A stretch of 49,520 nucleotides of DNA. It comes from an uncultured Pseudobdellovibrionaceae bacterium. GTDB lineage: Bacteria; Bdellovibrionota; Bdellovibrionia; Bdellovibrionales; UBA840. Position 1 is the stretch's first letter. Each line of letters opens with the position of its first letter. Positions 3,834 to 34,496 of this stretch are shown in pieces. A model generated the notes under the pieces. That model was not told where the DNA came from. It did no database searches and was given only the letters and a program-made list of their open reading frames with translations. Both the position numbers and the translations under genes were made by a program. The stretch lies in contig CAZZCP010000009.1 in the NCBI GenBank assembly GCA_964653235.1, forward strand, positions 1 to 49,520, given 5' to 3'.

Positions 3834-4898
3834 TTGCGTAGGATGAGAAATTCATTCGCACTCTTAGTTTTATTCGTTGCTCAAACCAGCCTTGGAGCCA
3901 TTCAAGGAGATCTACTTTGGGAGAGTCAAAAACCTAAAACTCGCCTGAACTGGGCCCTCAAAAAAATCAAATCAGAACAAGCATGGAAAATCAGCGAAGG
4001 CAAAAAAGACATTGTCATTGCGGTTATCGATACCGGCATCGACACTGAACATCCTGATTTAAAAGAAAATCTTTGGTTCAATCCTGGTGAAATAGGCAGA
4101 GATAAAAACGGAAATGATAAATCATCAAACGGAATTGATGACGACAAAAATGGTTTTGTCGACGATATCCATGGATGGAACTTTGTTCGCAACAACAATG
4201 ATGTGAAAGACTATCACGGACATGGCACCCATGTATCTGGTATCATCGCAGGAAGAGGCATTAAAAACCCCGCCTTTCGCGGCGTTGCCCCCAATGTCAA
4301 GATCATGACTCTGAAGTACTATGACAAAAAAGGCGCAAAAGACAAATCGGTCGAATATACAATTCGCGCGATTCAATACGCTATTCAAATGAAGGTACAA
4401 ATCATCAACTACTCTGGAGGCGGTACGAGTCAAAGTTTCTCTGAAAAAATTGCCATTCAACAAGCGGCAAAGGCAGGAATTCTTTTTGTCGCCGCCGCTG
4501 GAAACAAGGGAGTAAACTCAGACCTAATGGGATTTTACCCTGCAGGTTATGCCCTTGATAACATCATCTCAGTGGGTGCAATGAATGAGCAGAATCAAAT
4601 TTTAAAATCGAGCAATTTCGGTGCAAGTGCTGTTGATATCGCAGCCCCTGGAGAACATATTCTCTCAACCCTACCAGGCGGAAAATATGGCTTCATGACA
4701 GGAACCTCTCAAGCGACAGCTTATGTAACAGGGGTTGCCGCTTTGATTCTATCTGTAAAACCCAATGCCAAGCGCCCTGACCAGCTCATTCGCCACATTC
4801 TCGCCACTGGCGATAAAGAACTCTCTCTCATAGGAAAAACCAAATCCTACTCTCGTCTCAATAGCCACAGAGCACTGGCTATGGAACTCAAGAATTAA
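3834..4898 (+). CDS. secreted subtilisin-like serine protease (peptidase S8)
   Basis: Signal peptide. Catalytic motifs VIDTGID (Asp), HGHGTHVSGIIAG (His), GTSQATAYVTGVAAL (Ser), plus an Asp-rich insert IDDDKNGFVDDIHGWNF. Alternative start ATG 3843. Confidence 0.9.
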   Translation: MRRMRNSFALLVLFVAQTSLGAIQGDLLWESQKPKTRLNWALKKIKSEQAWKISEGKKDIVIAVIDTGIDTEHPDLKENLWFNPGEIGRDKNGNDKSSNGIDDDKNGFVDDIHGWNFVRNNNDVKDYHGHGTHVSGIIAGRGIKNPAFRGVAPNVKIMTLKYYDKKGAKDKSVEYTIRAIQYAIQMKVQIINYSGGGTSQSFSEKIAIQQAAKAGILFVAAAGNKGVNSDLMGFYPAGYALDNIISVGAMNEQNQILKSSNFGASAVDIAAPGEHILSTLPGGKYGFMTGTSQATAYVTGVAALILSVKPNAKRPDQLIRHILATGDKELSLIGKTKSYSRLNSHRALAMELKN

Positions 4899-5497
4899 TT
4901 CTTCTTGTTCCAACACATATTGTGCTTCGCATGTTTCTCTTTTGTTACTAAATATTTCTGATTGTGAACGTTCGCATGAACCGCAGTACTTAAAACCTCA
5001 AGAATCTCAATTTGATTTTCTTTGAGTTGCTCTACCTTATCGGGATTATTGGTGAGGATTCGAATTTTTGTTGCCTGCAAAACTTTTAACATCTCGGCAG
5101 CAACTTTGTAGTTTCTCAAGTCTTTCGCAAATCCTAGTTCTTCGTTAGCTTCAAAAGTATCTTTTCCTTCGGCCTGTAAAGCATAGGCATCTAATTTATT
5201 ATAGAGACCTATTCCCCTACCCTCTTGCCTTAGATACAATAGGTAGCCCCCCTCTTTTTGAATTCTCTTTATCGACTCATCCAATTGGTAACCGCAATCA
5301 CATTTGAGCGATCGAAAAACATCCCCAGTTAGACATTCAGAATGAATTCGCACTAATGGAGTATCGGTTTTAGGGCCAAGTCCAATGGCAATATGTTCTT
5401 TCTCATCACTTAAATGATGAAAACTAAAGAACTGTGCATTTTCTGAGATCTTATCTAAAGGGATTTCAACCAGATTTCTAAGACTTGGATTTGCCAT
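4895..5497 (-). CDS. ribA: GTP cyclohydrolase II
   Basis: RIHSECLTGDVFRSLKCDCGYQL, YLRQEGRGIGLYNKLDAYALQ and ILTNNPDK are RibA signatures. The stop codon overlaps the convergent S8 protease stop by 4 nt. Confidence 0.9.
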   Translation of the reverse strand: MANPSLRNLVEIPLDKISENAQFFSFHHLSDEKEHIAIGLGPKTDTPLVRIHSECLTGDVFRSLKCDCGYQLDESIKRIQKEGGYLLYLRQEGRGIGLYNKLDAYALQAEGKDTFEANEELGFAKDLRNYKVAAEMLKVLQATKIRILTNNPDKVEQLKENQIEILEVLSTAVHANVHNQKYLVTKEKHAKHNMCWNKKN

Positions 5498-5784: not shown

Positions 5785-8700
5785 CTAAGGGGTGATCTCA
5801 TAGATCGTTCCATTGGCTTTACGATCGGTAAAAACCAATTTACCATCAGATCGAATTCCGATATCAGTGATACTCAGGTTATCGATACCACCTAAATCTA
5901 AACTGTCTACTGTATCATCAGAAAGATCACCAACTACTCCCGAACCCAAGTGATAACGATAAATGTTAGAGTCACCAGTAACATAGTAGATATAACCGCT
6001 TGTGGCATTGCTATTGATATTCGTAGTTAGGGCAAAGCTGCGAAGACCTGAAATTGTGTCTGTTACATCGTGAATGGTCCAAGTGCTTGGGTCGGATGGA
6101 TTGACTCTTTTGATTATGCGAATACGTTCATCGGCATGAACAAAAATTTCACCCGATGCTGTGGCACTTAGGTTTTCTTTCATTTGTCCAGTGATGGCGG
6201 CAAAATGAAAAGATTGTGATGATTGTCCTGTAGCTAATATTGGCGATCCAGCTGGGGCACCAGATACCCCTGCAACATGTTCTACATTGCCCACAGCCCC
6301 AGTTGCCGGATTGTAGGAAAATCTTTTGATAAAGATATCGGCGGTACCACTACAGCCGTCTGGATCAAAAACAGTGTTTGCATAGCCTGAGAGATAAATA
6401 TAGCCATCAGTATGATGCAAACCTCTTTGGTAATTGGCATACCAATTTAGCTCACGCGGCCAATTGGCAAGATTCGCTGCAACTCCATCTGTAGGTGAAA
6501 TATTGCAAATTGAATCATTACCAATAATTTGTTGAGAGCCTCCGTCATGAAAGTGGTGATGGCGACTAAAAGTTGAAATAAAACCACCTGCAGTTGAAGG
6601 AAACAAAAGACTTGAGGTTGGATTGCGAGAATACATCACGCCGAAGCTTGTGAGTGAGTCAATGATCTCAGTTACGGAGTCAATCACCCGCATTTCTCCC
6701 GACCAACTCCAACAGCAGCTAACTCCCTTCGGAACATAGAGATTGTCGGCATCAGGAGCATTCGCATGTCCAACAAGAACATGTCCAGGATCATTTAGAT
6801 GAGCTTCGGCAGCAGGACCTGTATCGCCAGAATCAGCTAAGACTCCTGCAATAATGGCAACAGTACTCGAATCATCTTGCGGCATGCCCCAATTGTGCGC
6901 ACCTGTAAAAAACGTTGGATTGGCGATCAATTGTTTGATTTGCCCATTTGAATAATAGTAAAGATCTCCAGTCAATGGATCTTCATCGTAAATTCCCACA
7001 GCAACTGTAGAAACACTATTATTGAAATATCGATAGTAGGTGATACCAAAAACTTGCTTTTGGTCTGGAAAATCTTGGAACTCTAAAGTTCCAGTAGCTC
7101 TTCGGTAAATGATATATCGAATATTACAACCTGATACATTTCCATTCTTTGGGCAATTGTCTCCAAAATATACATCTCCGTTTTGATGAACAGCAAACCT
7201 CTGCCATCTTGAGCCACTGCAAGAGCTTTTAGCATCATTCGGGTGAAAAGAATAGCAATCATCCGTTGTTCCTGAGGCTGGTGAACCATTAAAGGCAACG
7301 TGGGTTACTGTGCTGCCATCATAATAATAAAGATTGTTGCTATTCTCAAAATATAAGCGACCGGGCTGATTTCGCCAAGCCTGAATGGTTCGACAAGGAT
7401 TGCTTAGAAACAAATCCCATACTTCTGTATTTTCGTTCCAAGTGAAAATTCCATTTTGATTGCAACCATAGACCACGCCAAAGTTATCACGATCTACTGT
7501 GCGAACAGGGTTTCCTCCCGCAAGAGGAGCAAGTTCAATCACGCCCGTTGCACCATCTATGGTCCGCAAACCTTGGTTAAAATCTCCTAGAAAAATACGG
7601 TTGGTCTGCGGATTTCTTACAAGATTTGCCAATGACCCTTGAAAGATTTGCTTGGTATTGAGCATTGTAAAGCGAGCTGAAATTCCGTTGGCATCACTCA
7701 CTCCCCCTGCGAGAACTCGAAGATTGCTGAGATTATAAATAGAACTGGTTTTTTGTACCGAGTTACCAGCGGCATCTCTAGCTGTTATTTTGAAAATGAC
7801 ACCTTTACCAGAAACACTGCCCGGTACAGAACTCCAATTATATGATAGGGTCTCAGTAGTCATATTACTGCTATTTGTATGTGGTGTTAGAGAGGAGGAA
7901 AGTAGATTCCATGTTTGTTTGTTGTCTATTGAATATTCGAGTTGAACTGAATTGCTCGGCATAGCTGATTCATTGTCGTGTACATGTATACTTAAAGTAA
8001 ATGGATCTGTAATTGCACTTCCTGCAGATGGTCCTAAGAAAGCAACTTGCGGAGGAGTGCCGCTGTCGAGCTGTATACTTAAGTTGGTTGAGGCTAAATT
8101 GCCGGCATCATCACGAGCATAGAAATAGATTGTATGAGTTCCTTGAGTGATACCCATAGTAAAGGGAAGGTTGGATTGAAATGGAATCCAGTTTGCAGGA
8201 TTAGGGGTAGTTAAACCATCCGTAGCCTGAATCTCTAAATTGGTATCAAAGTTGTCTGCAACATTTGAAAGCAAGTTCACAAATGCCGTACCAACGGGAC
8301 TCGTTTGCTGAAAAGCGACACTATTTATAATCGGGGCAGTGGTATCGAGCCGAACTGTCACGTTTGAAGAAATTGATGAGATATTTCCTGCTGAATCTTT
8401 AACCCAAAGACTAATTCTTCGATCTCCTTCGGCACCAGAAAGAGTGAAGCTATGAGCTTGATTGTTGGCGTTTGTACAATCAATCGTATAGGCCGAATCG
8501 AGTAAGGGGGGTAGATCAGCCCCAGCGGCATCACTCTCTACAATGGCCATCTTTTCAAAACTTCGGCAGTTCAGCGGACGAGCATCTAAGAGGGCTCCAG
8601 TTACAATTTGCAACGAAATATCGGTATCATTGGTGTAAGTATCAGATAAAAGTTGAAGACTTGGAGCATTGGCAGGAACCAAATCATAGACATTTATATT

Positions 8701-9570
8701 AAAAGACCTTTGAGCATAAGGCTTTGAGGTATCAATCTTACCTTCACCATCATCATTGCCAACAAAAACTTGCAATGTATATGGCCCTTGAGCATTTGCA
8801 TTGGGGGTGAAAGTAAAACTAGGTGAATTTGAAATTTCATTGCCGTTGAGTCTCCAACTTATAGCAATATTGTAACTCAATGACCAATGGCTTGTTAGAA
8901 CACTAAGACTATGACTTTGTTCTTCGCCAAAAGAATTCGGTAGAATTATTTTTCGAATCTGCGGAGCTGAATTCATCAAACGACTGGGCTCGATTCCAAA
9001 CATATCACGAAATCGAGATCGTAATGAACTAGATGAAGTAAAAGTTGAAAAAGCAGCTGTCAATGAATCTGTATCTTCAATTGCATCGTAGATTTCAGCA
9101 AGACTACTGGCATCTTTTGATCGAAGGTTTTCACTCGATTCTGAGTTTCTTAGATAACTCAAAATACTGTTTCCCTTAGAGAGTTTTTGTTCACTCTCAC
9201 CTGTTACAAATCTTTCATAATAATCTGTGCTACAGTTTAGATAAACGAGATAATTCACCTTTTTAAACGAGTTCTGATTTAAACCATAAGCATTTAAACC
9301 AGTAAAAAGATAGCTACCATCTGCTTTGAGAGGAGTGGAGGCAATCAAATCACTTTTATTGCCAAAATCATCAATTGCATAAAGATAAACATTTTCTCCG
9401 GTGCAAGAAGAAGACTTTTGCAAGCTCGCAGAAAAAAATTCTACAACACTACCTGAAAGACTCAAGGACTCATCGCCATTGAATTCGAGTTTCTTATTAC
9501 CACAAGAAACCAAGGCTAGACTTATTATTAAGACCAATATCTTACGAAATTCGTAAATAACGTTCATCAT
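5785..9570 (-). CDS. giant surface lipoprotein with Ig-like repeats and a probable C-terminal beta-propeller
   Basis: Lipobox LALVSCGN. Repeated Ig-like segments carry DxAGN motifs (VKDSAGN, ARDDAGN, ARDAAGN). The C-terminal ~600 aa is rich in Gly, Asn and Tyr. No exact family assigned. Confidence 0.75.
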   Translation of the reverse strand: MMNVIYEFRKILVLIISLALVSCGNKKLEFNGDESLSLSGSVVEFFSASLQKSSSCTGENVYLYAIDDFGNKSDLIASTPLKADGSYLFTGLNAYGLNQNSFKKVNYLVYLNCSTDYYERFVTGESEQKLSKGNSILSYLRNSESSENLRSKDASSLAEIYDAIEDTDSLTAAFSTFTSSSSLRSRFRDMFGIEPSRLMNSAPQIRKIILPNSFGEEQSHSLSVLTSHWSLSYNIAISWRLNGNEISNSPSFTFTPNANAQGPYTLQVFVGNDDGEGKIDTSKPYAQRSFNINVYDLVPANAPSLQLLSDTYTNDTDISLQIVTGALLDARPLNCRSFEKMAIVESDAAGADLPPLLDSAYTIDCTNANNQAHSFTLSGAEGDRRISLWVKDSAGNISSISSNVTVRLDTTAPIINSVAFQQTSPVGTAFVNLLSNVADNFDTNLEIQATDGLTTPNPANWIPFQSNLPFTMGITQGTHTIYFYARDDAGNLASTNLSIQLDSGTPPQVAFLGPSAGSAITDPFTLSIHVHDNESAMPSNSVQLEYSIDNKQTWNLLSSSLTPHTNSSNMTTETLSYNWSSVPGSVSGKGVIFKITARDAAGNSVQKTSSIYNLSNLRVLAGGVSDANGISARFTMLNTKQIFQGSLANLVRNPQTNRIFLGDFNQGLRTIDGATGVIELAPLAGGNPVRTVDRDNFGVVYGCNQNGIFTWNENTEVWDLFLSNPCRTIQAWRNQPGRLYFENSNNLYYYDGSTVTHVAFNGSPASGTTDDCYSFHPNDAKSSCSGSRWQRFAVHQNGDVYFGDNCPKNGNVSGCNIRYIIYRRATGTLEFQDFPDQKQVFGITYYRYFNNSVSTVAVGIYDEDPLTGDLYYYSNGQIKQLIANPTFFTGAHNWGMPQDDSSTVAIIAGVLADSGDTGPAAEAHLNDPGHVLVGHANAPDADNLYVPKGVSCCWSWSGEMRVIDSVTEIIDSLTSFGVMYSRNPTSSLLFPSTAGGFISTFSRHHHFHDGGSQQIIGNDSICNISPTDGVAANLANWPRELNWYANYQRGLHHTDGYIYLSGYANTVFDPDGCSGTADIFIKRFSYNPATGAVGNVEHVAGVSGAPAGSPILATGQSSQSFHFAAITGQMKENLSATASGEIFVHADERIRIIKRVNPSDPSTWTIHDVTDTISGLRSFALTTNINSNATSGYIYYVTGDSNIYRYHLGSGVVGDLSDDTVDSLDLGGIDNLSITDIGIRSDGKLVFTDRKANGTIYEITP

Positions 9571-9721
9571 ATCTCTATTCGGTTATTTAGAGGCTGCACT
9601 TTAGTCGCAATAGAAAGATTCTCAGACTGAGTCAAAAGCAATCAGTACTTGGCTAACAATAGCTAAGCCTTTAAAATATTTATGTTTTTCAGTGAAATCA
9701 TAAAACTTTACAGAAAAAAAC

Positions 9722-9749
9722 TTGATCTTCAATAGCGGATACGTATTAT
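9722..9749 (+). promoter_or_regulatory. candidate sigma70-type promoter for tRNA-His
   Basis: TTGATC (9722-9727), a 16-nt spacer, then TATTAT (9744-9749), about 18 nt before the tRNA 5' end. Confidence 0.3.
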
Positions 9750-9766
9750 TAGAAGCCAAATTCGAT

Positions 9767-9843
9767 GGCGGCCGTAGCTCAGTTGGTAGAGCCCCGGATT
9801 GTGATTCCGGTTGTCGCGGGTTCAAGCCCCGTCGGTCGCCCCA
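9767..9843 (+). tRNA. tRNA-His (anticodon GTG) with encoded G-1 and CCA
   Basis: Cloverleaf folded by hand: extra 5' G (G-1) opposite discriminator C; acceptor GCGGCCG/CGGTCGC; D-arm GCTCAGTTGGTAGAGC; anticodon arm CCGGA-TTGTGAT-TCCGG; T-arm GCGGG-TTCAAGC-CCCGT; 3' CCA encoded. Confidence 0.95.
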
Positions 9844-9883
9844 TTTAACCCGCTACATTTTTAATCAAATTTAAAGGCTGCTA

Positions 9884-9921
9884 GTTACCAGACCTCTTTG
9901 GTAACATTGGCAACCAATTTT
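9884..9921 (+). terminator. possible terminator after tRNA-His
   Basis: Hairpin GTTACCA-gacctctt-TGGTAAC, then a small TTGG-caa-CCAA hairpin followed by TTTT. The stems are weak. Confidence 0.25.
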
Positions 9922-9945
9922 AAAAAAGAAAAAAACCTATCGGTT

Positions 9946-10197
9946 CTACTCGGCCTTTTTAAACACATTCCAAAGTCGCTCGATGTCCTCTTTCAAAAGC
10001 TTGCTCAAAAATGAAGTGTAAGGCAAACCTTGAGCCGCGGCCAATTTCTTCGCCTTTTCTAGAGTGTCCTTTTTCAATCGCATATTCACTTGTTGAGACT
10101 TTAACAGCGGAACATCGGTTCGAGCTTCAGCCCGTTTTTCTATTTCAAGTATTTGCTTCTTCGCTATAGTTTCCAGTTTCGATTTTTTCTTCTTCAT
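9946..10197 (-). CDS. ribbon-helix-helix, BrnA/CopG-like antitoxin
   Basis: MKKKKSKLE...QVNMRLKKDTLEKAKKLAAAQGLPYTSFLSKLLKEDIERL resembles the BrnA/CopG C-terminal pattern (MRL...G.PY.S.L...L). It starts 13 nt after the stop of the upstream small ORF. Confidence 0.6.
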   Translation of the reverse strand: MKKKKSKLETIAKKQILEIEKRAEARTDVPLLKSQQVNMRLKKDTLEKAKKLAAAQGLPYTSFLSKLLKEDIERLWNVFKKAE

Positions 10198-10210
10198 AAT
10201 TAAAACCTCG

Positions 10211-10531
10211 TTACTTCTTCTTAGTTTTTCGGCGATACACGCTGACCACACCTAAAACTTCCAATTTTTCACCCTCGAAAAGCCAGATCAGACGATAAAC
10301 CTTAACGGGCTCTCCCCACTCAATGTCGGCAGCAAAATACTCAAGCCCTTCAGTTGTAGAATCCACCGGGAAGTTTCCACCGTCGAGAGCCGTCACAAGT
10401 TCTAAGATGATTTCGTCATTCAAGTAGCTGCTATGCTTTTCAAGATAGTGACGACCAATAAGCACCATTGATACTTCATGACCATTCACTGTGATCTCGA
10501 GCTCATATTGAGTGGGTTTAGAGTCCGCCAT
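10211..10531 (-). CDS. toxin-like small protein of unrecognised family (upstream partner of the RHH antitoxin)
   Basis: 106 aa. HYLEKHSSYLNDEIILELV and a C-terminal YRLIWLFEGEKLEVLGVVSVYRRK are faintly RelE/ParE-like. A decayed paralog lies at 13043-13260. Confidence 0.45.
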   Translation of the reverse strand: MADSKPTQYELEITVNGHEVSMVLIGRHYLEKHSSYLNDEIILELVTALDGGNFPVDSTTEGLEYFAADIEWGEPVKVYRLIWLFEGEKLEVLGVVSVYRRKTKKK

Positions 10532-10723
10532 ATCCTATACATCATATATTATAAACAACTGTAAATACACACTTTTTATTTTTATATATATAGTATTTTT
10601 GAGTTACATTCTTCTTTGAGGTCAGATTGGTTGATTTAGTAAATTTATGATTCCTTTTAAATTGCGCAAAAAAAGTGAACCACCATGTTTAAAGAAATAC
10701 TCAATCTGAGTCGCTACCGAGAC

Positions 10724-10786
10724 TGCCACTTAGGTGCCGCTGACCACCTAAGCCCTTGAAAAATTCAGGTTGGGTCGGTCGCCCTA
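10724..10786 (+). repeat. structured ~63-nt direct repeat, copy 1, with a tRNA-His 3'-end-like tail
   Basis: About 90% identical to 14597-14660. Contains hairpin CTTAGGTG-ccgctgac-CACCTAAG and a second imperfect hairpin CCCTTGAA..TTCAGG. The last 23 nt match tRNA-His 9821-9843 at 17/23. Confidence 0.8.
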
Positions 10787-10802
10787 TTATACCATTATAT
10801 GG

Positions 10803-10829
10803 TTGATATTTACCAATAAGTGGTATATA
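10803..10829 (+). promoter_or_regulatory. candidate promoter with extended -10, giving a near-leaderless mRNA
   Basis: TTGATA (10803-10808), a 15-nt spacer containing TGG, then TATATA (10824-10829). ATG 10838 is only 8 nt downstream, with no SD. Confidence 0.3.
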
Positions 10830-10837
10830 ACTTAAAC

Positions 10838-11170
10838 ATGCTAGAAGGTGTATTTGGCAATAAAACGGCAGAAAAAGTTCTTCTCCACATATTTCATTAT
10901 GGGGAGTCTTATGCATCTGCTATTTCAAAAGATTTTGAAACAGCATTAAATCCTGTTATTCAACAACTCAATCGTTTTGAAGTTTCAGGAATTTTGGTTT
11001 CGAAAACAGTGGGCAGATCAAGAGTTTATATCTTCAATCCAAAATCTCCTCTTGTAGGCCCGGTGAAGGATCTCATTGAACTCGCTTATGAGTCTATTCC
11101 TCTGAAAGAGAGACAGAGGATCTTTAAAGCCCGTCGTCGGCCGCGTCGAAAAGGCAAACCTGTCACATGA
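10838..11170 (+). CDS. winged-helix DNA-binding protein (AbiEi-like or ArsR/MarR-like), putative antitoxin
   Basis: AEKVLLHIFHYGESYASAISKDFETALNPVIQQLNRFEVSGILVSKTVGRSRVYIFN has a wHTH pattern, followed by a basic tail RRRPRRKGK. ATGA overlap with the next gene. Confidence 0.55.
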   Translation: MLEGVFGNKTAEKVLLHIFHYGESYASAISKDFETALNPVIQQLNRFEVSGILVSKTVGRSRVYIFNPKSPLVGPVKDLIELAYESIPLKERQRIFKARRRPRRKGKPVT

Positions 11171-11703
11171 AAGAACCAAATTGGGAGAACTGCACAGAGA
11201 AAGATGTCTGGGAGTATGTCGGCTGGCATTTAGCTAAAAATGGTATAAACACCATCTTGGTTGGCGGAGCAGTTTGTGCCATATACTCTGGGGGAGCCTA
11301 TCAATCAGGAGACTTAGACTTCGTTGAGCTTACTTACCAAAAAGATGCGGTTCCTCAAATCATGGAGTCGATCGGTTTTAAAAAGACATTAGGTCGTCAT
11401 TACATCCATCCTAAATGCAATAAATTTGTCGAGTTTTGTGCGGGTCCCGTTGGGATTGGCGATGACATCAATATCAAACCTGATGAAAAAAAAGTTGCGG
11501 GGCAAACTCTATATATATTCTCGCCAACAGATTGCATTCGAGATAGATTGGCTTCGTATATCCATTTCAAAGCCCGTGAATGTTTGGACCAAGCAGCTTT
11601 GGTAGCAAAACGCCTTCCATTTAATCGTTCGAAAGTGAAGGAATGGTGTAAAAAAGAAGGTGCTCCACATGCCTATGATGAGTTGCTAAAGAAGCTAAAG
11701 TGA
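11167..11703 (+). CDS. small nucleotidyltransferase-fold protein (AbiEii-like or minimal NTase-like)
   Basis: ILVGGAVCAIYSGGAYQSGDLDFVE fits the Pol-beta NTase signature G[GS]x(9-16)DxD. Translationally coupled to the wHTH gene. Confidence 0.5.
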   Translation: MKEPNWENCTEKDVWEYVGWHLAKNGINTILVGGAVCAIYSGGAYQSGDLDFVELTYQKDAVPQIMESIGFKKTLGRHYIHPKCNKFVEFCAGPVGIGDDINIKPDEKKVAGQTLYIFSPTDCIRDRLASYIHFKARECLDQAALVAKRLPFNRSKVKEWCKKEGAPHAYDELLKKLK

Positions 11704-11976
11704 TCACTCATATACTTCTTTTCGATGAGCAATTTGAATTACAATCACTTTTTCTAAATTTTCATCAATTTTATAAATGATTCTGTAGTCTTCTACCCGA
11801 AGTCTTCTTAATCCTTTGAGTGAATGCCTGAGTGGTTTTCCGAATCGAATGGGATCGACTTGCAATTTCTTTTCAATCGCTTTTTTTATTTTTCTTTTTA
11901 CAGGTAAAGATAGCTTGGGTATCTGATTTTTTACAACATCAGGAAGATATAGAATCTCATACATATTTATGACCAA
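11704..11976 (-). CDS. RelE/ParE-family type II toxin
   Basis: LRRLRVEDYRIIYKIDENLEKVIVIQIAHRKEVYE is a classic RelE/StbE C-terminus. Alternative start ATG 11964 (MYEILYL). Confidence 0.85.
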   Translation of the reverse strand: MVINMYEILYLPDVVKNQIPKLSLPVKRKIKKAIEKKLQVDPIRFGKPLRHSLKGLRRLRVEDYRIIYKIDENLEKVIVIQIAHRKEVYE

Positions 11977-12212
11977 GCATCATCATGTTCAATCAGGTTC
12001 TGCTCATCCATTTCATCGATTGCTTTATCACCATGCTTTGAAAAATATAGGTCTTCTTGCATTTCAAGAGCCTCTTCCACAAGATCATGAGTCAGAGAGG
12101 AAACAGAGACCCCTCTTTTCTTTGCCAATTTATCGAGCTCTTTATGAACTTTGTCAGAAACAGGGATCTGGATTCTTTTTTTTGATGTAGGCAATTTAAA
12201 ACTCCTTTGCAT
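11967..12212 (-). CDS. ribbon-helix-helix antitoxin (RelB/CopG-like), partner of the RelE/ParE toxin
   Basis: RIQIPVSDKVHKELDKLAKKRGVSVSSLTHDLVEEAL is an RHH pattern, with an acidic C-terminus. Lies directly upstream of the toxin. Confidence 0.75.
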   Translation of the reverse strand: MQRSFKLPTSKKRIQIPVSDKVHKELDKLAKKRGVSVSSLTHDLVEEALEMQEDLYFSKHGDKAIDEMDEQNLIEHDDAWS

Positions 12213-12214
12213 TA

Positions 12215-12231
12215 GTGTACCAAAAGTACAC
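12215..12231. promoter_or_regulatory. palindromic operator candidate upstream of the RHH/RelE operon
   Basis: GTGTAC-caaaa-GTACAC inverted repeat immediately 5' of the antitoxin start codon. Confidence 0.3.
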
Positions 12232-12281
12232 CACTAAGTAAAGAAATAACCTACTGTGTGTCATTAGGGAGAGCAATACAA

Positions 12282-12311
12282 GCTGTGACTGACAACCTAA
12301 AGCCTTGAAAT
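12282..12311 (+). repeat. degenerate partial copy of the islet repeat
   Basis: GCTGTGACTGACAACCTAAAGCCTTGAAATG versus GGTGCCACTGACCACCTAAGCCCTTGAAAG in the full copies. The 3' tRNA-like tail is missing. Confidence 0.5.
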
Positions 12312-12438
12312 GCTAAAGATGTTCGAAGCATCCTATTTCGGATTTTTATGTCCGAGAATCCTTTTTTCGGATTTGTTAACGAATTTAGATGTAGATGAAT
12401 TTGGCTTGATCATTGCTAAACATAAACTAGGAGGATTT

Positions 12439-12798
12439 ATGAATAGTAGAAGTTCGAATTACAAAATTAGATTAATAAAGAAATCAAAAATAAATTTATC
12501 AATAGAAGATAGAATACAGAAATTAGAAAAAGAAATTGAAAAATTTAATAAGAAATCAAAATTTAAAAAAATCAGTAAAGATTCAATAGAATGCAAGACA
12601 GAGATAATGGCCTATTGTGGTGAAAGTATTGAAGGAAAACAAAGATTTGTTGAAATATATGGTGAAAACAGAGGTTTTGAAATAGCTGTGCCTACGTCTA
12701 TTTTAAATTTTCTATCTTATGGCGATACTTTCTTAATGACATTCGGACGAATAAATCTTTTTTACGAATTACTTTTTTGCAGTAAGCCCTATCAATAA
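12439..12798 (+). CDS. hypothetical protein, very AT-rich orphan
   Basis: Strong SD AGGAGG (12429-12434) before ATG 12439. Lys-rich N-terminal half. No motif recognised. The upstream extension to 12310 is unlikely. Confidence 0.45.
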   Translation: MNSRSSNYKIRLIKKSKINLSIEDRIQKLEKEIEKFNKKSKFKKISKDSIECKTEIMAYCGESIEGKQRFVEIYGENRGFEIAVPTSILNFLSYGDTFLMTFGRINLFYELLFCSKPYQ

Positions 12799-12890
12799 AT
12801 TCTTGTTTGATCCAATATTTGTAGCCGTTTGATTTTCAAAGAGAACTAAGAATAGATTTTTATCTGAATTTGAAAATACTCAATACTTAT

Positions 12891-13085
12891 TTAGGAAACC
12901 TTTAACTTAATTTTATGATCTGGTCTTACTTGACTGAGTAAACCTAGAAGACGGTCGGTACTTATGCCATCAATTCGGTGATGAAAAATTCGACTAAGAT
13001 CAGCTTCTGGAACACTCAAAGTTTCTGCAAGTTCGACATTCTTTAATTCATTCTCATGTTTATAGGCAAGAAGAGCTTGTAGTAT
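12891..13085 (-). pseudogene. XRE-family HTH antitoxin fragment lacking a start
   Basis: My own minus-strand translation gives ..NVELAETLSVPEADLSRIFHHRIDGISTDRLLGLLSQVRPDHKIKLKVS*. It is bounded upstream by an in-frame TAA (13086-13088), with no ATG, GTG or early TTG. Confidence 0.55.
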
Positions 13086-13260
13086 TTAGCTCTCAAAAGC
13101 AGCCTATTTGTCGCAAAGTATTCGTATCTACCAATTCACTTCTCGGGTTCAGCTCTATAACCATCCAGAAGCTTACAAGTTCTAGTTTAAGTTCATCATT
13201 TATAGTGTCGCTGTGTTTTTCTTCATAATGGGAGTCAATAATGACTTTTTCAAGTATCTT
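13043..13260 (-). pseudogene. 5'-truncated, frameshifted paralog of the toxin-like gene 10211..10531
   Basis: The minus strand reads KILEKVIIDSHYEEKHSDTINDELKLELV. After a frameshift it reads KLLDGYRAEPEK*IGRYEYFATN...KYYKLFL. This parallels RHYLEKHSSYLNDEIILELVTALDGG...LEYFAAD...KVYRLIWL. Confidence 0.5.
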
Positions 13261-13264
13261 TCAA

Positions 13265-13954
13265 TTAACCCGTCAGTTTTTCTAAGTCTGGCACAGCTTC
13301 AAGAGACTTCCAGATCCGAGTGGCCGTTGAAGTGTTACAGCCAGCAATTTTAGCTGCTTGATAAGCCGTTCTAGCATTCTCTGATGATTTTAGGTAGATG
13401 ATATCTGACCGATAATTCGAGCCAATCATTGCCCTAAGTTTTAACCAGGAGTGATTTTTTAGTATTCTTTCTAGGGTAAAAAACTTTTTAGGTGGCACCT
13501 CGTAAAATGCCCTTGTTTTAACTCCAAAGTGTAACAATGCGGGTTCAGCTCCCCACTGCTTTATAAGTGAGGCATGGCACTCACTTTTAGGTGGATTTGT
13601 CATTTTAAGGCGCGGCTTATGGAGTTTTTTAAATGCTAATTTATAACGGTGGTCTCCCATTTCGACAAACTTTTCGCAAAGAGCTATCAACAACACCAAC
13701 TCATCAGATGTTAAGAAGGAGTTTTGAGCCAAACTAATTAACCGCTCCACATGAATCAAGCTTGAAAGTCGGTGTTTTAAAAGAGAATACGTCATAAAAA
13801 ATATATCATTGTATTCCCAATAAAAACGAAGGCTTTCTAAAATAAACTTTTCAGGATCAACGGGTTCTATTACCTTTTTAAAATTAAAAGCACAGCCAAG
13901 CGAGGTCAATTTTTCTATTATTTCATCACTATGATACCTACCTGCCACGTTCAA
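13265..13954 (-). CDS. hypothetical protein with a C-terminal helix-turn-helix, downstream partner of an NTase
   Basis: C-terminal ENARTAYQAAKIAGCNTSTATRIWKSLE looks like an HTH. One Rx5H string (RLSSLIH, residues 62-68) is only weak HEPN-like evidence. Overlaps the upstream NTase gene by 17 nt. Confidence 0.5.
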   Translation of the reverse strand: MNVAGRYHSDEIIEKLTSLGCAFNFKKVIEPVDPEKFILESLRFYWEYNDIFFMTYSLLKHRLSSLIHVERLISLAQNSFLTSDELVLLIALCEKFVEMGDHRYKLAFKKLHKPRLKMTNPPKSECHASLIKQWGAEPALLHFGVKTRAFYEVPPKKFFTLERILKNHSWLKLRAMIGSNYRSDIIYLKSSENARTAYQAAKIAGCNTSTATRIWKSLEAVPDLEKLTG

Positions 13955-14543
13955 TGCTCCTCGATTGCTCTAAGACCTCTTTGAAGCAAAGATCGACAAA
14001 ATCCTTATCTGGTGGTTTTTTAAGGCTTAAAATCCAGGTTCTAGAAAACTCAAGCTCAAGCTCAAGCTCAAGCTTGTTAGGCTTAAGGTCGATGAGATCA
14101 TCTTTATCGACTTGAGTGTGCCTTGTGCAATAGGCATTAAATTTAGTAGCTATAATATCTTTTCGCCCTAAAGATTTAACGATTATGGCCTCGCCCTTAA
14201 AAATCTCTATGCTTCGTTTTTGCCAGGCCTCGGGAAAGCTTCTTGAAAGGATACGGCCGGCACTATTGAGCCAAGTCAGGTCCATTCCAAATTCTTCACC
14301 AATTTCACCAGCTATCGACTGCAAAGTAGTATCCATTTCAGGTTCTACAAGGTCAATATCGATCGTTGAGCGGTCTTTACGAGCGATTCCCTGGATGATG
14401 AGGGAGCCGCTACCAAAAATGGTAAATTCCTGAGTTATACCCTCATCTTTAAGTTTCTTGTCTAAAATGCTAAATAGTTCGTGAATATTCGTCCTATCAA
14501 TCATATTTCCCAGTTTATCATAAATATGTGTATTATAAAGCAT
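13938..14543 (-). CDS. minimal nucleotidyltransferase-fold protein (MntA-like)
   Basis: FTIFGSGSLIIQGIARKDRSTIDIDLVEP fits GSx(n)DxD. DIDLVEP resembles DLDFVEL in the NTase at 11167..11703. Confidence 0.55.
   Translation of the reverse strand: MLYNTHIYDKLGNMIDRTNIHELFSILDKKLKDEGITQEFTIFGSGSLIIQGIARKDRSTIDIDLVEPEMDTTLQSIAGEIGEEFGMDLTWLNSAGRILSRSFPEAWQKRSIEIFKGEAIIVKSLGRKDIIATKFNAYCTRHTQVDKDDLIDLKPNKLELELELEFSRTWILSLKKPPDKDFVDLCFKEVLEQSRSIERGR
14049..14072. repeat. hexanucleotide tandem repeat (CTCAAG x4) inside the NTase gene
   Basis: Four perfect copies, in frame, encoding (EL)n: KLELELELEF. Confidence 0.9.
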
Positions 14544-14596
14544 ATTCTAGTTGCATATAATTGATCTCACAAATTCACCGTGGTCACTATTGGGAG

Positions 14597-14660
14597 TGCC
14601 ACTTAGGTGCCACTGACCACCTAAGCCCTTGAAAGAATTCAGGGTGGGTCGATCGCCCCA
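14597..14660 (+). repeat. structured ~63-nt direct repeat, copy 2, with a tRNA-His 3'-end-like tail
   Basis: TGCCACTTAGGTGCCACTGACCACCTAAGCCCTTGAAAGAATTCAGGGTGGGTCGATCGCCCCA. Same two hairpins as copy 1. The last 23 nt match the tRNA-His 3' end at 17/23 and end in CCCCA. Confidence 0.8.
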
Positions 14661-14779
14661 ATAAATTAACCAGCATGAAAAAATAGTGAAGAATCTATTC
14701 TGAACGAGGAGTCCCGCAGCCAAAGGCTGCTAATTGCCAAATTTTTACACCTACATCCGTGAATAACTAAACTAAGTCA

Positions 14780-14807
14780 TTGACTTACTGTGCCAATGAC
14801 TTACACT
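14780..14807 (+). promoter_or_regulatory. candidate brnTA promoter with a direct-repeat operator
   Basis: TTGACT (14780-14785), a 16-nt spacer, then TACACT (14802-14807). TGACTTAC occurs twice (14781 and 14796). ATG 14813 is 5 nt after the -10, with no SD. Confidence 0.3.
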
Positions 14808-14812
14808 AGGTT

Positions 14813-15106
14813 ATGAAATTTGAATGGGACTCTAAAAAAGAAAAGCAAAATTTAAATAAACATGGAATCTCATTTGATGAAGCATCCAAGATTTTTAAGG
14901 GGCGAGCTGATTATTTGGAATTTTATGATGAGTCTCGTTCTGAAGATGAAGATCGCTTTATTGCCATTGGATCAATCGCAAAAGGGCTCATAGTTGTTGT
15001 TTATGTAGAACGGGATTTTGATGTTATTCGTATTGTTTCGGCAAGAAAAGCAACTCGGTCTGAAGTGGTTTTATTTAACGATTTTAAACGAGGAAAGAAT
15101 AAATGA
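14813..15106 (+). CDS. brnT: BrnT-family (DUF497) toxin
   Basis: MKFEWDSKKEKQNLNKHGISFDEASKIF...DEDRFIAIG...VVVYVERDFDVIRIVSARKATRSE matches the BrnT pattern. Confidence 0.85.
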   Translation: MKFEWDSKKEKQNLNKHGISFDEASKIFKGRADYLEFYDESRSEDEDRFIAIGSIAKGLIVVVYVERDFDVIRIVSARKATRSEVVLFNDFKRGKNK

Positions 15107-15384
15107 GAGAATTGACTAAAAATGATTTTAAACGAGCTATATCTGGGAAATTACGCAGAAAAATTGCCGCCGGTAAGATTGAATCTGGCAAAGACATTGC
15201 TCAGTTGCGAAAGTTTGTTGATCTTACTCAGGCTGAGTTTGCTGATGCAATGGGGATTAGCGTGTATACCTTAAGAAACTGGGAACAAGGAAGACGCGTC
15301 CCTGTAGGGCCGGCTCTTGCTCTTTTACGTATTGCTGCACGACACCCCAGGATTATCCGAGCGAATTTAAATACAGTGGCTTGA
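15103..15384 (+). CDS. XRE-family HTH antitoxin, partner of BrnT
   Basis: LTQAEFADAMGISVYTLRNWEQGRRVPVGPALALLRIAARHP. ATGA overlap with brnT. Confidence 0.8.
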   Translation: MRELTKNDFKRAISGKLRRKIAAGKIESGKDIAQLRKFVDLTQAEFADAMGISVYTLRNWEQGRRVPVGPALALLRIAARHPRIIRANLNTVA

Positions 15385-15486
15385 TAATCTTCTTTAAAGC
15401 AAGCATCCCTTCAAGGTACAAGGGGTCATTATGAAAAAGTCTTTTTTAGACTTAAGTATAATTTTGAGACAACCGATAGTATCAAT

Positions 15487-17364
15487 ATGAGATATTTTAT
15501 AGTATTTCTAATTTTTACAAACATTTGCATGGCTCAATCAAGACCTACTGACTCTGCAAGATTGACAGACTCTCGTGGAAATTTAGTTTCTATCGATTTA
15601 CCCGGTAATGAAGAAATTAGGCTTTCTGCTGCAAGAAGAACTCACTACATCGAACGTTGCCAAAGAAAGAGAGAAAGACAAAATTGTGACATCCCTGCTC
15701 TGCGGAGCGCACCGATAGCTACTCGTGAGCCCAGTTGTAAGATTAACTCTTATGATCTTGCTCAAATCAAAGATCGATTCATATGCCAATCAGAAACATC
15801 TCTGTTAGCATGTTCTGGCGGAGCAATGGGTGCGATTCTAGCTGGCCGTAGGGCTGGAGCCAATCACCTTGATGATATTACTCGAAAAATTACGACCGAC
15901 GCCAATCGAGCCTTAGACTTTGCAGAGGACTATCATAATTCTTCACTCACCAAAAAACCAAAGGTAGATGATCGTGCTACTCTTCTTTCAACCTTAAAAA
16001 AAGAATACAAGGAAATTGCTTCTGCATTGCGTATGGAAGCTTATATGAATGACTTGATCAGTGAACATAATGAATTGCAAAGTGAATTAGGTCGCCTAAG
16101 AGAGGCCTATTCTGGAGGAAAGGCAATAGAAACACCTAGGGCTAATGATATTCAGAGAAAAACTGAACGCCTAAAACAACTCAAAGCACATCTTGAAAGA
16201 TATTATATTACCCCAAACAATCTCGATGGAAGCATAGATAGGGGCGCAATTGCAGATGCCCGAAAGAAACTAGATGCTTTTAAAATCTATTTTGAGGAAC
16301 TTAAGGAAAAGCCAATTTTAAGAAAACCAATTATTGATTTTGAATATAACCCCAGAACTAAAACCTATCGACTCTTTGATGTTAACAATCACAGATTCTC
16401 TGAACTGCCCGAGAATGCTAGAATCAAAGTTACTGAAAATGCCACAGCTACCCTTAAAAATGCCTTAGCTAGAGTTAAACGAGCAGGGGGCAATATCAAA
16501 GATGCTATAAAAAATCTCAACCCAGCCTTAAGAACAGCGATTCAAAGCTCTTTAAATCATGCAGATGATGCAAAACCTAAACCTGGGAAAGTGAAATCAA
16601 GATTTAAAGCTCCCCGTACTCCTCCAAGGGTTTCCGCTCGCCTAGTGGGAAGACAGGCCTCACAATTTCTTACCCGTGGTGTCGCATTGGGAGTTGGACT
16701 AAAAGTTTTAGGAACTGGACTCAGCTTAGTAAGCACTGAAAGTGCATATGCAGCCTGCAGCGTAGAGCCAATTGATACTTATATCAATTCACCCGACGGC
16801 TGTGGAAAGAAAGGCCCACTACAATTGAGTGATGGCGTTTTGGCTTTTTTAGATCTAGATCAACAAGAGCAAGATTATTTATTAGAGGATAACGCACAGG
16901 TATGTGCGTTTTATACCGAATTGTTAGAAACAACTGAAGTTACTGATCGATTTCAAAATCCTTCTTGCAATGGTAACAAAGCCTCTCTTGAAGTTCAAAA
17001 CTCGCAGGGTGAGTATGTGCCGGTAGAATTGAATATCAGAAACAGTGGTAGCGCTGATTGGAGCATTCAACGGATTGCTTTTTACCCTGGCAGAGCAGAA
17101 GAATTGAGCGAAGAGTATGATCAAGAATTCAATCAAACTAAAATTAAATTTCCAGATTTAAGCAATACTGGCTCAAGAAGTGAAGGAGAAAGAATAATGA
17201 GAACGATTGACAGATCTTCTCATATGATCTCTCGTCTTCGGATGTACGCACATGAGTTCGCTCAATGTTGTCAATCTTCAAACCAACAGAGCTGTCTTCA
17301 AGACTTTGGCTCATCTTCTCGTAGCAGAAGTGATCGATCAAAAAGACGTCGTGGTAGCAGATAA
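15487..17364 (+). CDS. secreted hypothetical protein with coiled-coil segments and an Arg/Ser-rich tail
   Basis: N-terminal signal peptide, a central heptad-like region, one hydrophobic segment (GVALGVGLKVLGTGLSLV), a Cys-containing C-terminal domain and a tail SSSRSRSDRSKRRRGSR. No family recognised. Confidence 0.6.
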   Translation: MRYFIVFLIFTNICMAQSRPTDSARLTDSRGNLVSIDLPGNEEIRLSAARRTHYIERCQRKRERQNCDIPALRSAPIATREPSCKINSYDLAQIKDRFICQSETSLLACSGGAMGAILAGRRAGANHLDDITRKITTDANRALDFAEDYHNSSLTKKPKVDDRATLLSTLKKEYKEIASALRMEAYMNDLISEHNELQSELGRLREAYSGGKAIETPRANDIQRKTERLKQLKAHLERYYITPNNLDGSIDRGAIADARKKLDAFKIYFEELKEKPILRKPIIDFEYNPRTKTYRLFDVNNHRFSELPENARIKVTENATATLKNALARVKRAGGNIKDAIKNLNPALRTAIQSSLNHADDAKPKPGKVKSRFKAPRTPPRVSARLVGRQASQFLTRGVALGVGLKVLGTGLSLVSTESAYAACSVEPIDTYINSPDGCGKKGPLQLSDGVLAFLDLDQQEQDYLLEDNAQVCAFYTELLETTEVTDRFQNPSCNGNKASLEVQNSQGEYVPVELNIRNSGSADWSIQRIAFYPGRAEELSEEYDQEFNQTKIKFPDLSNTGSRSEGERIMRTIDRSSHMISRLRMYAHEFAQCCQSSNQQSCLQDFGSSSRSRSDRSKRRRGSR

Positions 17365-33275: not shown

Positions 33276-34496
33276 CTAGTAATAGATCATCGAAGTAAGC
33301 AAGAGACTTTGCGTATTTCTGTAGTTATTGCCATCAAATCCTGTTTCTATTAGATTGCTATCTCTTTTGGTGAGATCATAAAAAAGACCTAGGCGAATAT
33401 TGTGCCCCTTCATATACCAATTCAAGCCGAAAACAGTTGAAGTCAAACTAAAATTATCTGCTTGATGAAAGCGGTCCCACTCTTCATAGCGAAAGTAAGG
33501 CGCTAAGTAAGATAGCGAAGTGAAAACATACTCCCCTTCAAGATAAAAACCATCTGAGCTTCCGTAATTGAGACTGGTAGCACTCATATCTTCAATTGCA
33601 CCTTCAAAACGAAAATACTCGCCTTGAAGTAAAAGAGATTTGTAGTGAAAACTGATCTCTCCATTCCAGAGAGTGCGGGTGATTTCATTGTCGTTTGATA
33701 AACCATCGGTAAACTTGATGTTGGAGGTTTGAAATACACCTCCACCAAATGAAAAATGCTTTCCTTTACCAAAATAGGTATCACGAACCTTTTTGTCTTC
33801 CCAGCCCTTGAAAGGATAAATACGAAGTTTTGTACCGATCATAAAATTTTGTGCTGTAATAGAATCCGCTTCATCTCCGTTGGCATCGGTTAAGTCGCCA
33901 CTGTAAACCCCGTCACCAGCCACCAATTGAAAATAAAAATAATCATAAAAACCCAAAAGCTGAACATTGGTGGCACGTCGATTTTGGTTTACAAAATCAG
34001 AGGCTTCTTCGGCAATGTGAGCCCGCTCAAGAAAAATCAATTTTGACGAACTAACGGTTTGTGAGCGTGAGACATCGACTTTTGCTCTAAGAAAACGAAA
34101 CTTTAGTTTTTCTTGGCCAAAGACATTAGCCACTTCAAAGTAGGCATCACCGACATTGAAATCTTTCTCGCCTTTATCTTCTTTATTGGCTTTATCATTT
34201 CGAATATCCATATAAAATCTAAAGTCTTCTTTATAAGAGGCCTCTACCTGAAAGCGTGTTCGACGAATAAATGCATCTTGCAATTGAAGGTCACTGTCTG
34301 CGTCAGTAGCCCCAATTTTCTCTTGATGCTTCGCTATTGCTTGAAATCGGGTTCCGATTCGAAATTGAATGGGCGAATCTTCTGGTACCGGAATCGCAAC
34401 ACCCCACTCTTTTCGTTCTTTTCCCAAAATATAATCTTGGGCATAACTATAATAGCTTGAGGTAAAAATAAAAAATAAGATCCAAAACAATTTCAT
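33276..34496 (-). CDS. outer-membrane porin-like beta-barrel protein
   Basis: Signal peptide and a 400-aa alternating-strand pattern. Possibly OprO/P-like (FRIGTRFQ, RRTRFQVE), but this is not verified. Confidence 0.5.
   Translation of the reverse strand: MKLFWILFFIFTSSYYSYAQDYILGKERKEWGVAIPVPEDSPIQFRIGTRFQAIAKHQEKIGATDADSDLQLQDAFIRRTRFQVEASYKEDFRFYMDIRNDKANKEDKGEKDFNVGDAYFEVANVFGQEKLKFRFLRAKVDVSRSQTVSSSKLIFLERAHIAEEASDFVNQNRRATNVQLLGFYDYFYFQLVAGDGVYSGDLTDANGDEADSITAQNFMIGTKLRIYPFKGWEDKKVRDTYFGKGKHFSFGGGVFQTSNIKFTDGLSNDNEITRTLWNGEISFHYKSLLLQGEYFRFEGAIEDMSATSLNYGSSDGFYLEGEYVFTSLSYLAPYFRYEEWDRFHQADNFSLTSTVFGLNWYMKGHNIRLGLFYDLTKRDSNLIETGFDGNNYRNTQSLLLTSMIYY

Follow-up and report, generated by a model that had tools for sequence, protein, structure and literature searches.

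A tRNA-His-anchored islet of toxin-antitoxin-type modules punctuated by repeats that resemble the tRNA 3′ end in a Pseudobdellovibrionaceae contig

The tRNA-His islet

The contig CAZZCP010000009.1 (assembly GCA_964653235.1) of an uncultured Pseudobdellovibrionaceae bacterium was analyzed over its entire length of 49,520 nucleotides (nt). This stretch, the whole NCBI contig, is termed the window, and statements on repeats and recombinases "on the contig" refer to that length. A region that begins at position 9844, directly 3′ of a tRNA-His gene, and extends about 5.5 kb to position 15384 is termed the islet. It contains five intact two-gene modules of the toxin-antitoxin type, one decayed pair and one orphan gene. 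Copies of an 84-85-nt repeat, whose tail resembles the 3′ end of the tRNA, lie between blocks of these genes. It is proposed here, with middling confidence, that the islet is a tandem array of miniature integrative elements that lack an integrase and that accreted serially at the tRNA-His 3′ end.

The repeat and the downstream motif

The tRNA gene, the proposed recombination core at its 3′ end, and the repeat copies with their cores are located as follows.

9768-9843, + strand: tRNA-His (GTG), intact, with encoded CCA (ARAGORN; Rfam RF00005, 63.9 bits)
9831-9850, + strand: proposed attB/attL core, the last ~13-20 nt of tRNA-His, a member of the core repeat family
10710-10793, + strand: repeat copy 1, with a 64-nt arm, the hairpin CTTAGGTG-N8-CACCTAAG and the core GTCGGTCGCCCTATTATACC
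10774-10793, + strand: core of repeat copy 1, 17/20 to the tRNA 3′ end
12260-12343, + strand: repeat copy 3, decayed, with hairpin and core both eroded
14583-14667, + strand: repeat copy 2, with the same hairpin in its arm and the core GTCGATCGCCCCAATAAATT
14648-14667, + strand: core of repeat copy 2, 15/20 to the tRNA 3′ end, CCA kept

Copies 1 and 2 are identical at 71 of 85 positions (83.5%). All three copies are on the strand of tRNA-His, in agreement with an earlier reading of this DNA made from the sequence alone (termed the sequence-only reading). That reading gave the repeat a length of about 63 nt; the actual unit is 84-85 nt. It also overlooked the third copy, which lies between the ParE module and the orphan and was found with an nhmmer profile of the other two (E = 0.011, whole window). 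Copy 3 shows 57-60% identity to copies 1 and 2, and none of 1000 shuffles attained the observed local alignment score. A 29-nt tandem direct repeat (ATGTYCGARNATCCTWTTTTCGGATTT) is present at the tail of copy 3, at positions 12319-12374, and within it is a terminator-like hairpin followed by a T-run (positions 12336-12357).

The repeat consists of a perfect 8-bp hairpin, present in both good copies, a second short hairpin, and a tRNA-like tail. Its GC content is 51-55% within an islet of 37.5% GC. The last ~20 nt are a copy of the tRNA-His 3′ end and include the core GTCGGTCGCCC, which is matched at 11/11 positions in copy 1 and 10/11 in copy 2. The similarity extends beyond the CCA (tRNA, GTCGGTCGCCCCATTTAACC; copy 1, GTCGGTCGCCCTATTATACC; copy 2, GTCGATCGCCCCAATAAATT). 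The alignments of the tails with the tRNA have p = 0.002-0.003 relative to shuffles, which bears out the earlier claim that the repeat tail mimics the tRNA 3′ end. The 11-nt core, with one mismatch or none, occurs three times in the window compared with 0.16 expected, and all three occurrences are on the + strand. For the arm that precedes the core, alignment with the tRNA body is no better than chance (p = 0.24-0.99 relative to shuffles).

The repeats occupy intergenic gaps and define blocks of 0.9-2.3 kb.

Block A: 9844-10709
Block B: 10794-12259
Block C: 12344-14582
Block D: 14668 to ~15400

Once copy 3 is counted, every clear intergenic gap between cassette-sized blocks bears a copy, and for this reason copy 3 strengthens the pattern of serial insertion.

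A 15-nt motif, GGYTGMTANTTRCCA, is found at three sites only in the window, and each is 3′ of the tRNA, the copy 1 core or the copy 2 core.

9876-9890, + strand: motif copy 1, candidate element of the P′ arm, 30-33 nt past the tRNA end
10801-10815, + strand: motif copy 2, 13-15 nt downstream of the core of repeat copy 1
14725-14739, + strand: motif copy 3, 62-65 nt downstream of the core of repeat copy 2

An alignment of the flank that follows the tRNA with the flank that follows repeat copy 2 gives p = 0.009. Motif copy 2 overlaps a -35-like TTGATA, with TATAAC 17 nt further, ahead of a winged helix-turn-helix (wHTH) gene; this was seen by eye, and the site was not listed by the promoter scan. 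The counts in the promoter and terminator scan are at chance level.

Gene modules of the islet

Only small genes are present at 9844-15384, where the longest stop-to-stop frame is 234 codons. The earlier claim that only small paired genes lie 3′ of tRNA-His therefore holds, and its gene list was largely right. The genes are listed below, with protein lengths in amino acids (aa).

9946-10197, - strand: CopG_antitoxin (CopG/BrnA-type), Pfam PF12441; block A
10211-10531, - strand: 106-aa toxin-like protein, no Pfam match; block A
10838-11170, + strand: wHTH protein, PADLOC PDC-M05A (7e-7); block B
11167-11703, + strand: 178-aa nucleotidyltransferase-like protein; block B
11704-11976, - strand: ParE/RelE toxin, Pfam ParE_toxin (3.5e-9); block B
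11967-12212, - strand: ribbon-helix-helix (RHH) antitoxin, Pfam RHH_5 (1.2e-8); block B
12439-12798, + strand: 119-aa orphan with a good ribosome-binding site, in the kilobase of the window with the lowest GC content (0.315); block C
12894-13085, - strand: HTH_37-like frame of the decayed pair (1.4e-5; at 25.2 bits slightly short of the 27-bit cut-off); block C
13096-13260, - strand: toxin fragment of the decayed pair, with clear homology to the 106-aa protein; block C
13265-13954, - strand: 229-aa partner of the DUF6036 nucleotidyltransferase, the largest open reading frame of the islet, with an all-alpha model and a C-terminal wHTH; block C
13938-14543, - strand: DUF6036 nucleotidyltransferase (Pfam); block C
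14813-15106, + strand: BrnT toxin, Pfam PF04365 (1.8e-25); segment D
15103-15384, + strand: XRE/MqsA-type antitoxin, PF15731/PF01381 (MqsA/HTH_3); segment D

The modules at 11704-12212 and 14813-15384 consist of adjacent small genes with recognized toxin and antitoxin domains, and by these features they are classed as type II toxin-antitoxin modules. The RHH and ParE/RelE pair (11704-12212) is, by its domains, a canonical one. As a group the islet modules resemble known type II and type IV systems (ParE/RelE-RHH, BrnT-antitoxin, and AbiE-like nucleotidyltransferase with wHTH), i.e. they are small bicistronic operons, often with start/stop overlap. The pairings differ from those in known modules. 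BrnT has an XRE/MqsA-type antitoxin and not BrnA as its partner, the 106-aa protein that accompanies the CopG/BrnA-type antitoxin comes from an undescribed family, and the partners in the two nucleotidyltransferase modules are without family assignment.

The sequence-only reading had labeled 11167-11703 a nucleotidyltransferase. By itself the 178-aa protein matches nothing, and the label stands only at the level of its family: the family has 954 representatives, DUF2204 is found in 11 of 32 relatives, and a G33-G34...D49xD51 motif (GG...DxD) is conserved.

The 106-aa protein belongs to a family of 58 clusters for which there is no Pfam model and which comes mostly from metagenome-assembled genomes (MAGs) of Bdellovibrionota type. 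Residues H28, Y29, H33, D39, D57 and R80 are invariant. The AlphaFold model has a predicted local distance difference test score (pLDDT) of 85, and its best PDB matches, which are weak, are HigB2, MqsR and RelE (probability ~0.9, template modeling (TM) score ~0.5, E ≥ 0.16). The 106-aa protein is a candidate for a new toxin family. In every other genomic context retrieved, the gene for the 106-aa family is adjacent to the CopG gene and directly upstream of it.

The islet is in chromosomal surroundings; genes for RibA, FtsK, LpxK, TonB and Fur are present on the contig. RibA (4895-5497, - strand) has a best relative of 62% identity among 5.8 billion clustered proteins. The source organism belongs to a deep, barely sampled lineage. 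The best matches of the islet proteins bear Bdellovibrionota names (Pseudobdellovibrionaceae, Bacteriovoracaceae, Bdellovibrionales), which by themselves place the lineage probably within or close to this phylum, and many large open reading frames of the contig are without a Pfam or NCBIfam match at the thresholds used, e.g. 15487-17364, 30716-32317 and 33276-34496.

The proteins of the 106-aa/CopG operon have relatives of 81-82% aa identity in Pseudobdellovibrionaceae and other Bdellovibrionota, compared with the maximum of 62% for RibA on the same contig. Because of this difference there is some support, from sequence comparison, for horizontal movement of the operon, and at least this module of the islet appears to be mobile in that sense. 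Similarity of the DNA to that of the relatives stops at the operon edges.

Two of the islet modules are, to judge from their sequences, conserved bicistronic units elsewhere. Homologs of the 106-aa/CopG module are found solitary between housekeeping genes in other genomes (e.g. locus L006; the loci fetched for comparison carry L numbers), and the DUF6036 module is found likewise (L019). One copy near a tRNA gene was observed in L034 (positions 8756-10574; NCBI MAG GCA_964490895.1), where a module of a 103-aa protein and CopG lies 1.15 kb downstream of tRNA-Ser and near the contig end. The last 290 nt of that contig show no direct repeat of the tRNA-Ser 3′ end.

The pair formed by the DUF6036 nucleotidyltransferase and its 229-aa partner is also present in L019, L020 and L036. 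The predicted model of the 229-aa partner (pLDDT 93; predicted TM score 0.90) matches in the PDB solely wHTH regulators, over ~50 C-terminal residues, and the protein may represent a new antitoxin or regulator fold. The 106-aa putative toxin and the 229-aa partner of DUF6036 nucleotidyltransferases are thus two uncharacterized protein families for which a clear module context has been gained.

Search for a recombinase

Pfam, NCBIfam and PADLOC were applied to all open reading frames of the islet, and Pfam and/or NCBIfam to 32 of the 33 other open reading frames of the contig with at least 120 aa. In none of those tested, within the islet or in the rest of the contig, did these searches detect an integrase, resolvase or transposase domain, and the families Phage_integrase, Resolvase and DDE gave zero matches. 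A comparison of the AlphaFold model with the PDB did not show a recombinase fold for the 229-aa protein either. The earlier statement that no open reading frame in the interval looks like an integrase is confirmed by the domain searches, and for the largest open reading frame also by predicted fold.

Serial integration at the tRNA-His 3′ end

The arrangement of tRNA, repeats and motifs can be accounted for by the following scheme. An incoming circular element would carry an attP-like site formed by a hairpin arm of ~64 nt (P), a core of ~15-20 nt (O) that is identical to the tRNA-His 3′ end, and the GGYTGMTANTTRCCA flank (P′). A tRNA-targeting site-specific recombinase encoded elsewhere, most likely a tyrosine integrase, would recombine O with the tRNA 3′ end. 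Each integration would restore the tRNA and displace the earlier elements outward. The resulting order would be tRNA-O-P′ / A / P-O-P′ / B / P-O-(decayed) / C / P-O-P′ / D. The array would hold at least three elements, probably four, and the sites may be active at present. As the cargo is nearly all two-gene modules of the toxin-antitoxin type, addiction properties would favor retention of the array.

Several details of the locus match this scheme. P-O-P′ is expected at the internal junctions of related tandem elements, and it corresponds to the arm, core and motif at copies 1 and 2. B-O-P′ is expected at the junction next to the tRNA and corresponds to the tRNA, core and motif found there. 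That the arm does not align to the tRNA body is expected of a P arm derived from the element. An intact tRNA together with same-orientation arm/core junctions is the pattern left by site-specific integrations that recur at the 3′ end of a tRNA. As in tRNA islands, an intact tRNA stands at the insertion site and distal direct repeats of its 3′ end are in the same orientation; an integrase or recombinase of its own, which tRNA islands encode, was not found for the islet. As in cis-mobilizable elements (CIMEs), candidate junctions of the attL/attR type are kept while integration genes are lacking.

Serial integration had been proposed by the sequence-only reading, and this proposal has partial support. 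The anatomy, the recurrent 15-nt motif, the lack of an integrase and the third junction speak for it. It had left a choice between a fossil array and an array mobilized in trans; both fit the known concept of CIMEs and accretion, so that the proposal is reasonable but not new in kind. The structure is plausibly a known kind of scar, in an unusually miniature form that consists of toxin-antitoxin-type modules only.

Several observations weigh against serial integration. Searches of genomes, metagenomes, viral contigs and plasmids revealed neither an integrase-bearing parent element nor a free attP. Apart from chance matches, the repeat core is absent from the collections searched: the 185,579 species genomes of GTDB (3 chance matches only), JGI metagenomes (0 matches), IMG/VR (1 chance match) and plasmids (none). 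No copies were found with nhmmer in any of the fetched loci or elsewhere on the 49.5-kb contig. There is no terminal repeat or attR distal to the BrnT module, which leaves block D unclosed. The distance from core to motif varies (~13, 30 and 62 nt), unlike that in a rigid attP. The composition of the islet does not clearly deviate: its GC content (37.5%) is near that of the contig (39.4%), and the orphan region is its only clearly AT-rich part. Homologous modules elsewhere are without the window repeat and, save for the copy in L034, without a nearby tRNA. The collections contain no close relative for a comparison of empty sites or polymorphism, the best RibA relative being 62% identical; an exact-protein look-up for close relatives returned the same organism only, as short Logan contigs from a single run (SRR7048222). 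Finally, the blocks are smaller than the smallest autonomous, i.e. integrase-bearing, tRNA island in a Klebsiella survey, which is 3.5 kb (10.1101/2020.11.02.365908). Each block would therefore need to have shed its integrase, or to have been without one from the start.

If serial integration is the correct reading, the islet would be an example of tRNA-targeted accretion on the scale of a single toxin-antitoxin operon (~1-2 kb), with a recombinase wholly in trans. The locus would then be intermediate between classical genomic islands and integron cassettes, and it would help to explain the build-up of toxin-antitoxin and defense genes beside tRNA genes in poorly sampled predatory and environmental lineages. 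If the repeats are merely decayed scars, the locus would be an ordinary, though tidy, case of island decay.

Other explanations

Local duplication is an unlikely explanation, and it survives best among the alternatives. An intergenic element of ~85 nt (regulatory, insulator or similar to a miniature inverted-repeat transposable element, MITE) would have multiplied inside the locus through segmental duplication or homologous recombination. The tRNA-like tail of the repeat would have originated from the 3′ flank of tRNA-His, with no recombinase involved, and the toxin-antitoxin modules would have arrived independently. There are only three copies of the repeat, all inside 5 kb, and the repeat is in no other genome searched; the motif 3′ of the cores could be the remnant of a duplicated flank that was once longer. 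A unit flanked by a different repeat in L020 (described below) is clearly a partial tandem duplication of a nucleotidyltransferase module. The cargo, however, is unrelated between blocks, so that the repeat would have been duplicated without an accompanying segment of cargo. The arm is derived neither from the tRNA body nor from the upstream flank of the tRNA. All copies have the tRNA orientation and, as in att cores, their similarity runs on for only a few bases beyond the end of the tRNA, and no target-site duplications or terminal inverted repeats of the MITE type were seen.

A hotspot defined by its flanks is somewhat less probable. In such a hotspot, toxin-antitoxin and defense modules would be swapped by homologous recombination through conserved flanks, or would enter by illegitimate insertion, and the repeats would be incidental. 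The modules are indeed self-contained operons that occur solitary between housekeeping genes elsewhere (L006, L019), in several blocks two or three modules follow one another without an intervening repeat, and the GC content is not clearly deviant. This leaves unexplained the three oriented copies that end in the tRNA 3′ end, the structure of the repeat and its GC richness.

The folding of the repeat is relevant to a third explanation, that it is a functional structured element, i.e. a tRNA-like RNA or a folded single-strand DNA site that acts as a processing signal, small RNA or regulator of the neighboring modules. In this structure the 5′ segment would pair with the tRNA-like tail (GCTACCGA / TCGGTCGC) and enclose the two hairpins. 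The complementarity is 7/8 pairs in copy 1, and the helix is present in the minimum-energy DNA fold of that copy. The single core change in copy 2 (G to A) is matched by an opposite C to T, and the discriminator base and CCA are kept. Relative to shuffles, the DNA folds have z-scores of -1.4 and -2.2 for copy 1 and of -2.7 and -3.9 for copy 2. The explanation is nevertheless very improbable, as there is no Rfam family match, ARAGORN makes no call on the repeats even at 80% thresholds, the three-copy consensus fold loses the closing helix and the hairpin, the covariation amounts to one event in two informative sequences, and the scan finds no promoter within or directly upstream of copy 1 or 2 on the repeat strand. 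The consensus RNA fold of the three window copies shows no convincing conserved structure.

Two other identities of the repeat were considered and rejected. It is not a tRNA pseudogene: an Rfam scan of 9000-16500 (E ≤ 10) gives the tRNA only and no tRNA match in the repeats, ARAGORN is silent as stated, and the 5′ parts of the repeat are not aligned to the tRNA. An integron attC site was rejected by inspection, as GTTGGGT is present in copy 1 only (GGTGGGT in copy 2), there is no RYYYAAC partner, and the fold consists of two short hairpins and not a single long stem. No dif-like (Xer) site was noticed around the repeats, by eye only, with no formal model run.

Comparison with known systems

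Integron cassette arrays and clusters of attC sites without an integrase (CALINs) contain small, often toxin-antitoxin, cassettes between same-orientation structured repeats that are alike within an array. An attC site has R″-L″...L′-R′ boxes (RYYYAAC...GTTRRRY) and forms one long imperfect hairpin, and the array is headed by intI/attI. Integron cassettes are mostly co-oriented, promoterless and of a single open reading frame. The islet is similar to CALINs in having small cassettes between same-orientation structured repeats and no local recombinase. Unlike integron arrays, it has genes on both strands, in operons with their own promoters, there is no intI, and the head of the array is a tRNA 3′ end and not attI.

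CIMEs and accretion are known from the ICESt1/ICESt3 family of Streptococcus thermophilus: an element integrates and decays, and the next one integrates at the retained att site (PMC5704250). Like the islet, CIMEs keep att junctions, lack genes for integration and transfer, and follow one another in tandem behind the gene whose 3′ end is the target; a recombinase supplied in trans can mobilize them (PMC5704250). CIMEs are recognizable deletion derivatives of a specific integrative and conjugative element (ICE) or integrative and mobilizable element (IME), whereas the islet is without a known parent element. The islet also differs in that its units are only 0.9-2.3 kb and contain only modules of the toxin-antitoxin type.

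A second comparable system is found at ssrA in Dehalococcoides. The arrays there show a 20-bp direct repeat, preceded by a conserved motif that is not alignable to ssrA, and 15 islands without integration modules have been interpreted as CIMEs (PMC3146451). As in the islet, tandem units lie 3′ of a gene for a small stable RNA, and each is bounded by a repeat of the 3′ end of that gene (PMC3146451). The Dehalococcoides arrays differ in their target, which is a tmRNA, in the large serine recombinase encoded in many islands, in the size of the islands (many kb), in their reductive dehalogenase genes, and in that variability has been shown across many strains (PMC3146451).

Repeat-punctuated arrays in another lineage

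Homologs of the 229-aa partner, 63-67% identical, were observed in another lineage (ENA samples ERZ25068282-ERZ25071132), in arrays that are punctuated by a same-orientation repeat of ~165 nt. This is a lead to a separate repeat-punctuated cassette array. The repeat is found at these loci.

L022, 6133-20183: 165-nt repeat, six copies
L020, 204-3629: 165-nt repeat, flanking modules
L036, 9173-13969: 165-nt repeat, flanking modules
L021, 10688-10757: 165-nt repeat, flanking modules

The six copies in L022 are 80-91% identical and each is 3′ of a cassette. The cassettes are a 229-aa gene, a 130-aa gene, AbiEi/AbiEii, a 110-aa gene with a methyltransferase, HicAB with an ankyrin protein, and a Schlafen-like gene; ParE is also among the cassettes of the 165-nt repeat arrays. 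A copy that contains only the 3′ part of the repeat (7721-7770) heads the run of full copies, and a fragment of the 5′ part is present at 6133-6200. In the 20.7 kb of L022 there is no tRNA, no Rfam match and no annotated recombinase; L020 and L036 contain one transposase gene each.

ACGGGAT / ATCCCGT motifs occur in inverted and direct arrangement in the 165-nt repeat, which is unstructured. The consensus RNA fold of the L020 repeats shows no convincing conserved structure. No similarity was found between the window repeat and the 165-nt repeat of L020 and L022.

The pattern of toxin-antitoxin and defense cassettes that are split by a lineage-specific repeat, with no local recombinase, thus recurs, although this proves nothing about the window. 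The 165-nt repeat arrays may represent an undescribed cassette system. Because of this recurrence, a further reading of the islet is kept alive, in which the array is no collection of dead remnants and still works as a capture platform similar to an integron. Toxin-antitoxin and defense modules would move as mini-cassettes, each with a lineage-specific recombination site of 85-165 nt, and a recombinase encoded elsewhere would insert and excise them. The tRNA-His 3′ end would then take the role of attI in this genome. Such a platform is improbable; if it exists, the islet and the arrays in L022, L020 and L036 would exemplify a general, so far undescribed architecture.

tRNA-His sequences in other loci

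The tRNA-His sequence of the window is carried by eleven metagenome loci and two viral contigs, which are fragments of T4-like phages or unrelated chromosomes. The eleven metagenome loci, which have the same tRNA-His 3′ half, show no flank homology to the window; their downstream sequences differ, and the flanking genes sampled in two of them are unrelated. Neither islands nor a second core are present in these loci and viral contigs, and on the chromosomes ordinary genes lie downstream. The tRNA-His sequences in L016 (2180-2255) and L017 (1721-1796) are identical to that of the window over the full 77 nt, while in L024, L025 and L027 the same 48-nt 3′ half is matched. The T4-like phage contigs with the tRNA-His encode the Gp59 helicase loader, a late-transcription coactivator, a lysozyme and an amidase, and they may point to a link between phage and host in this poorly sampled lineage.

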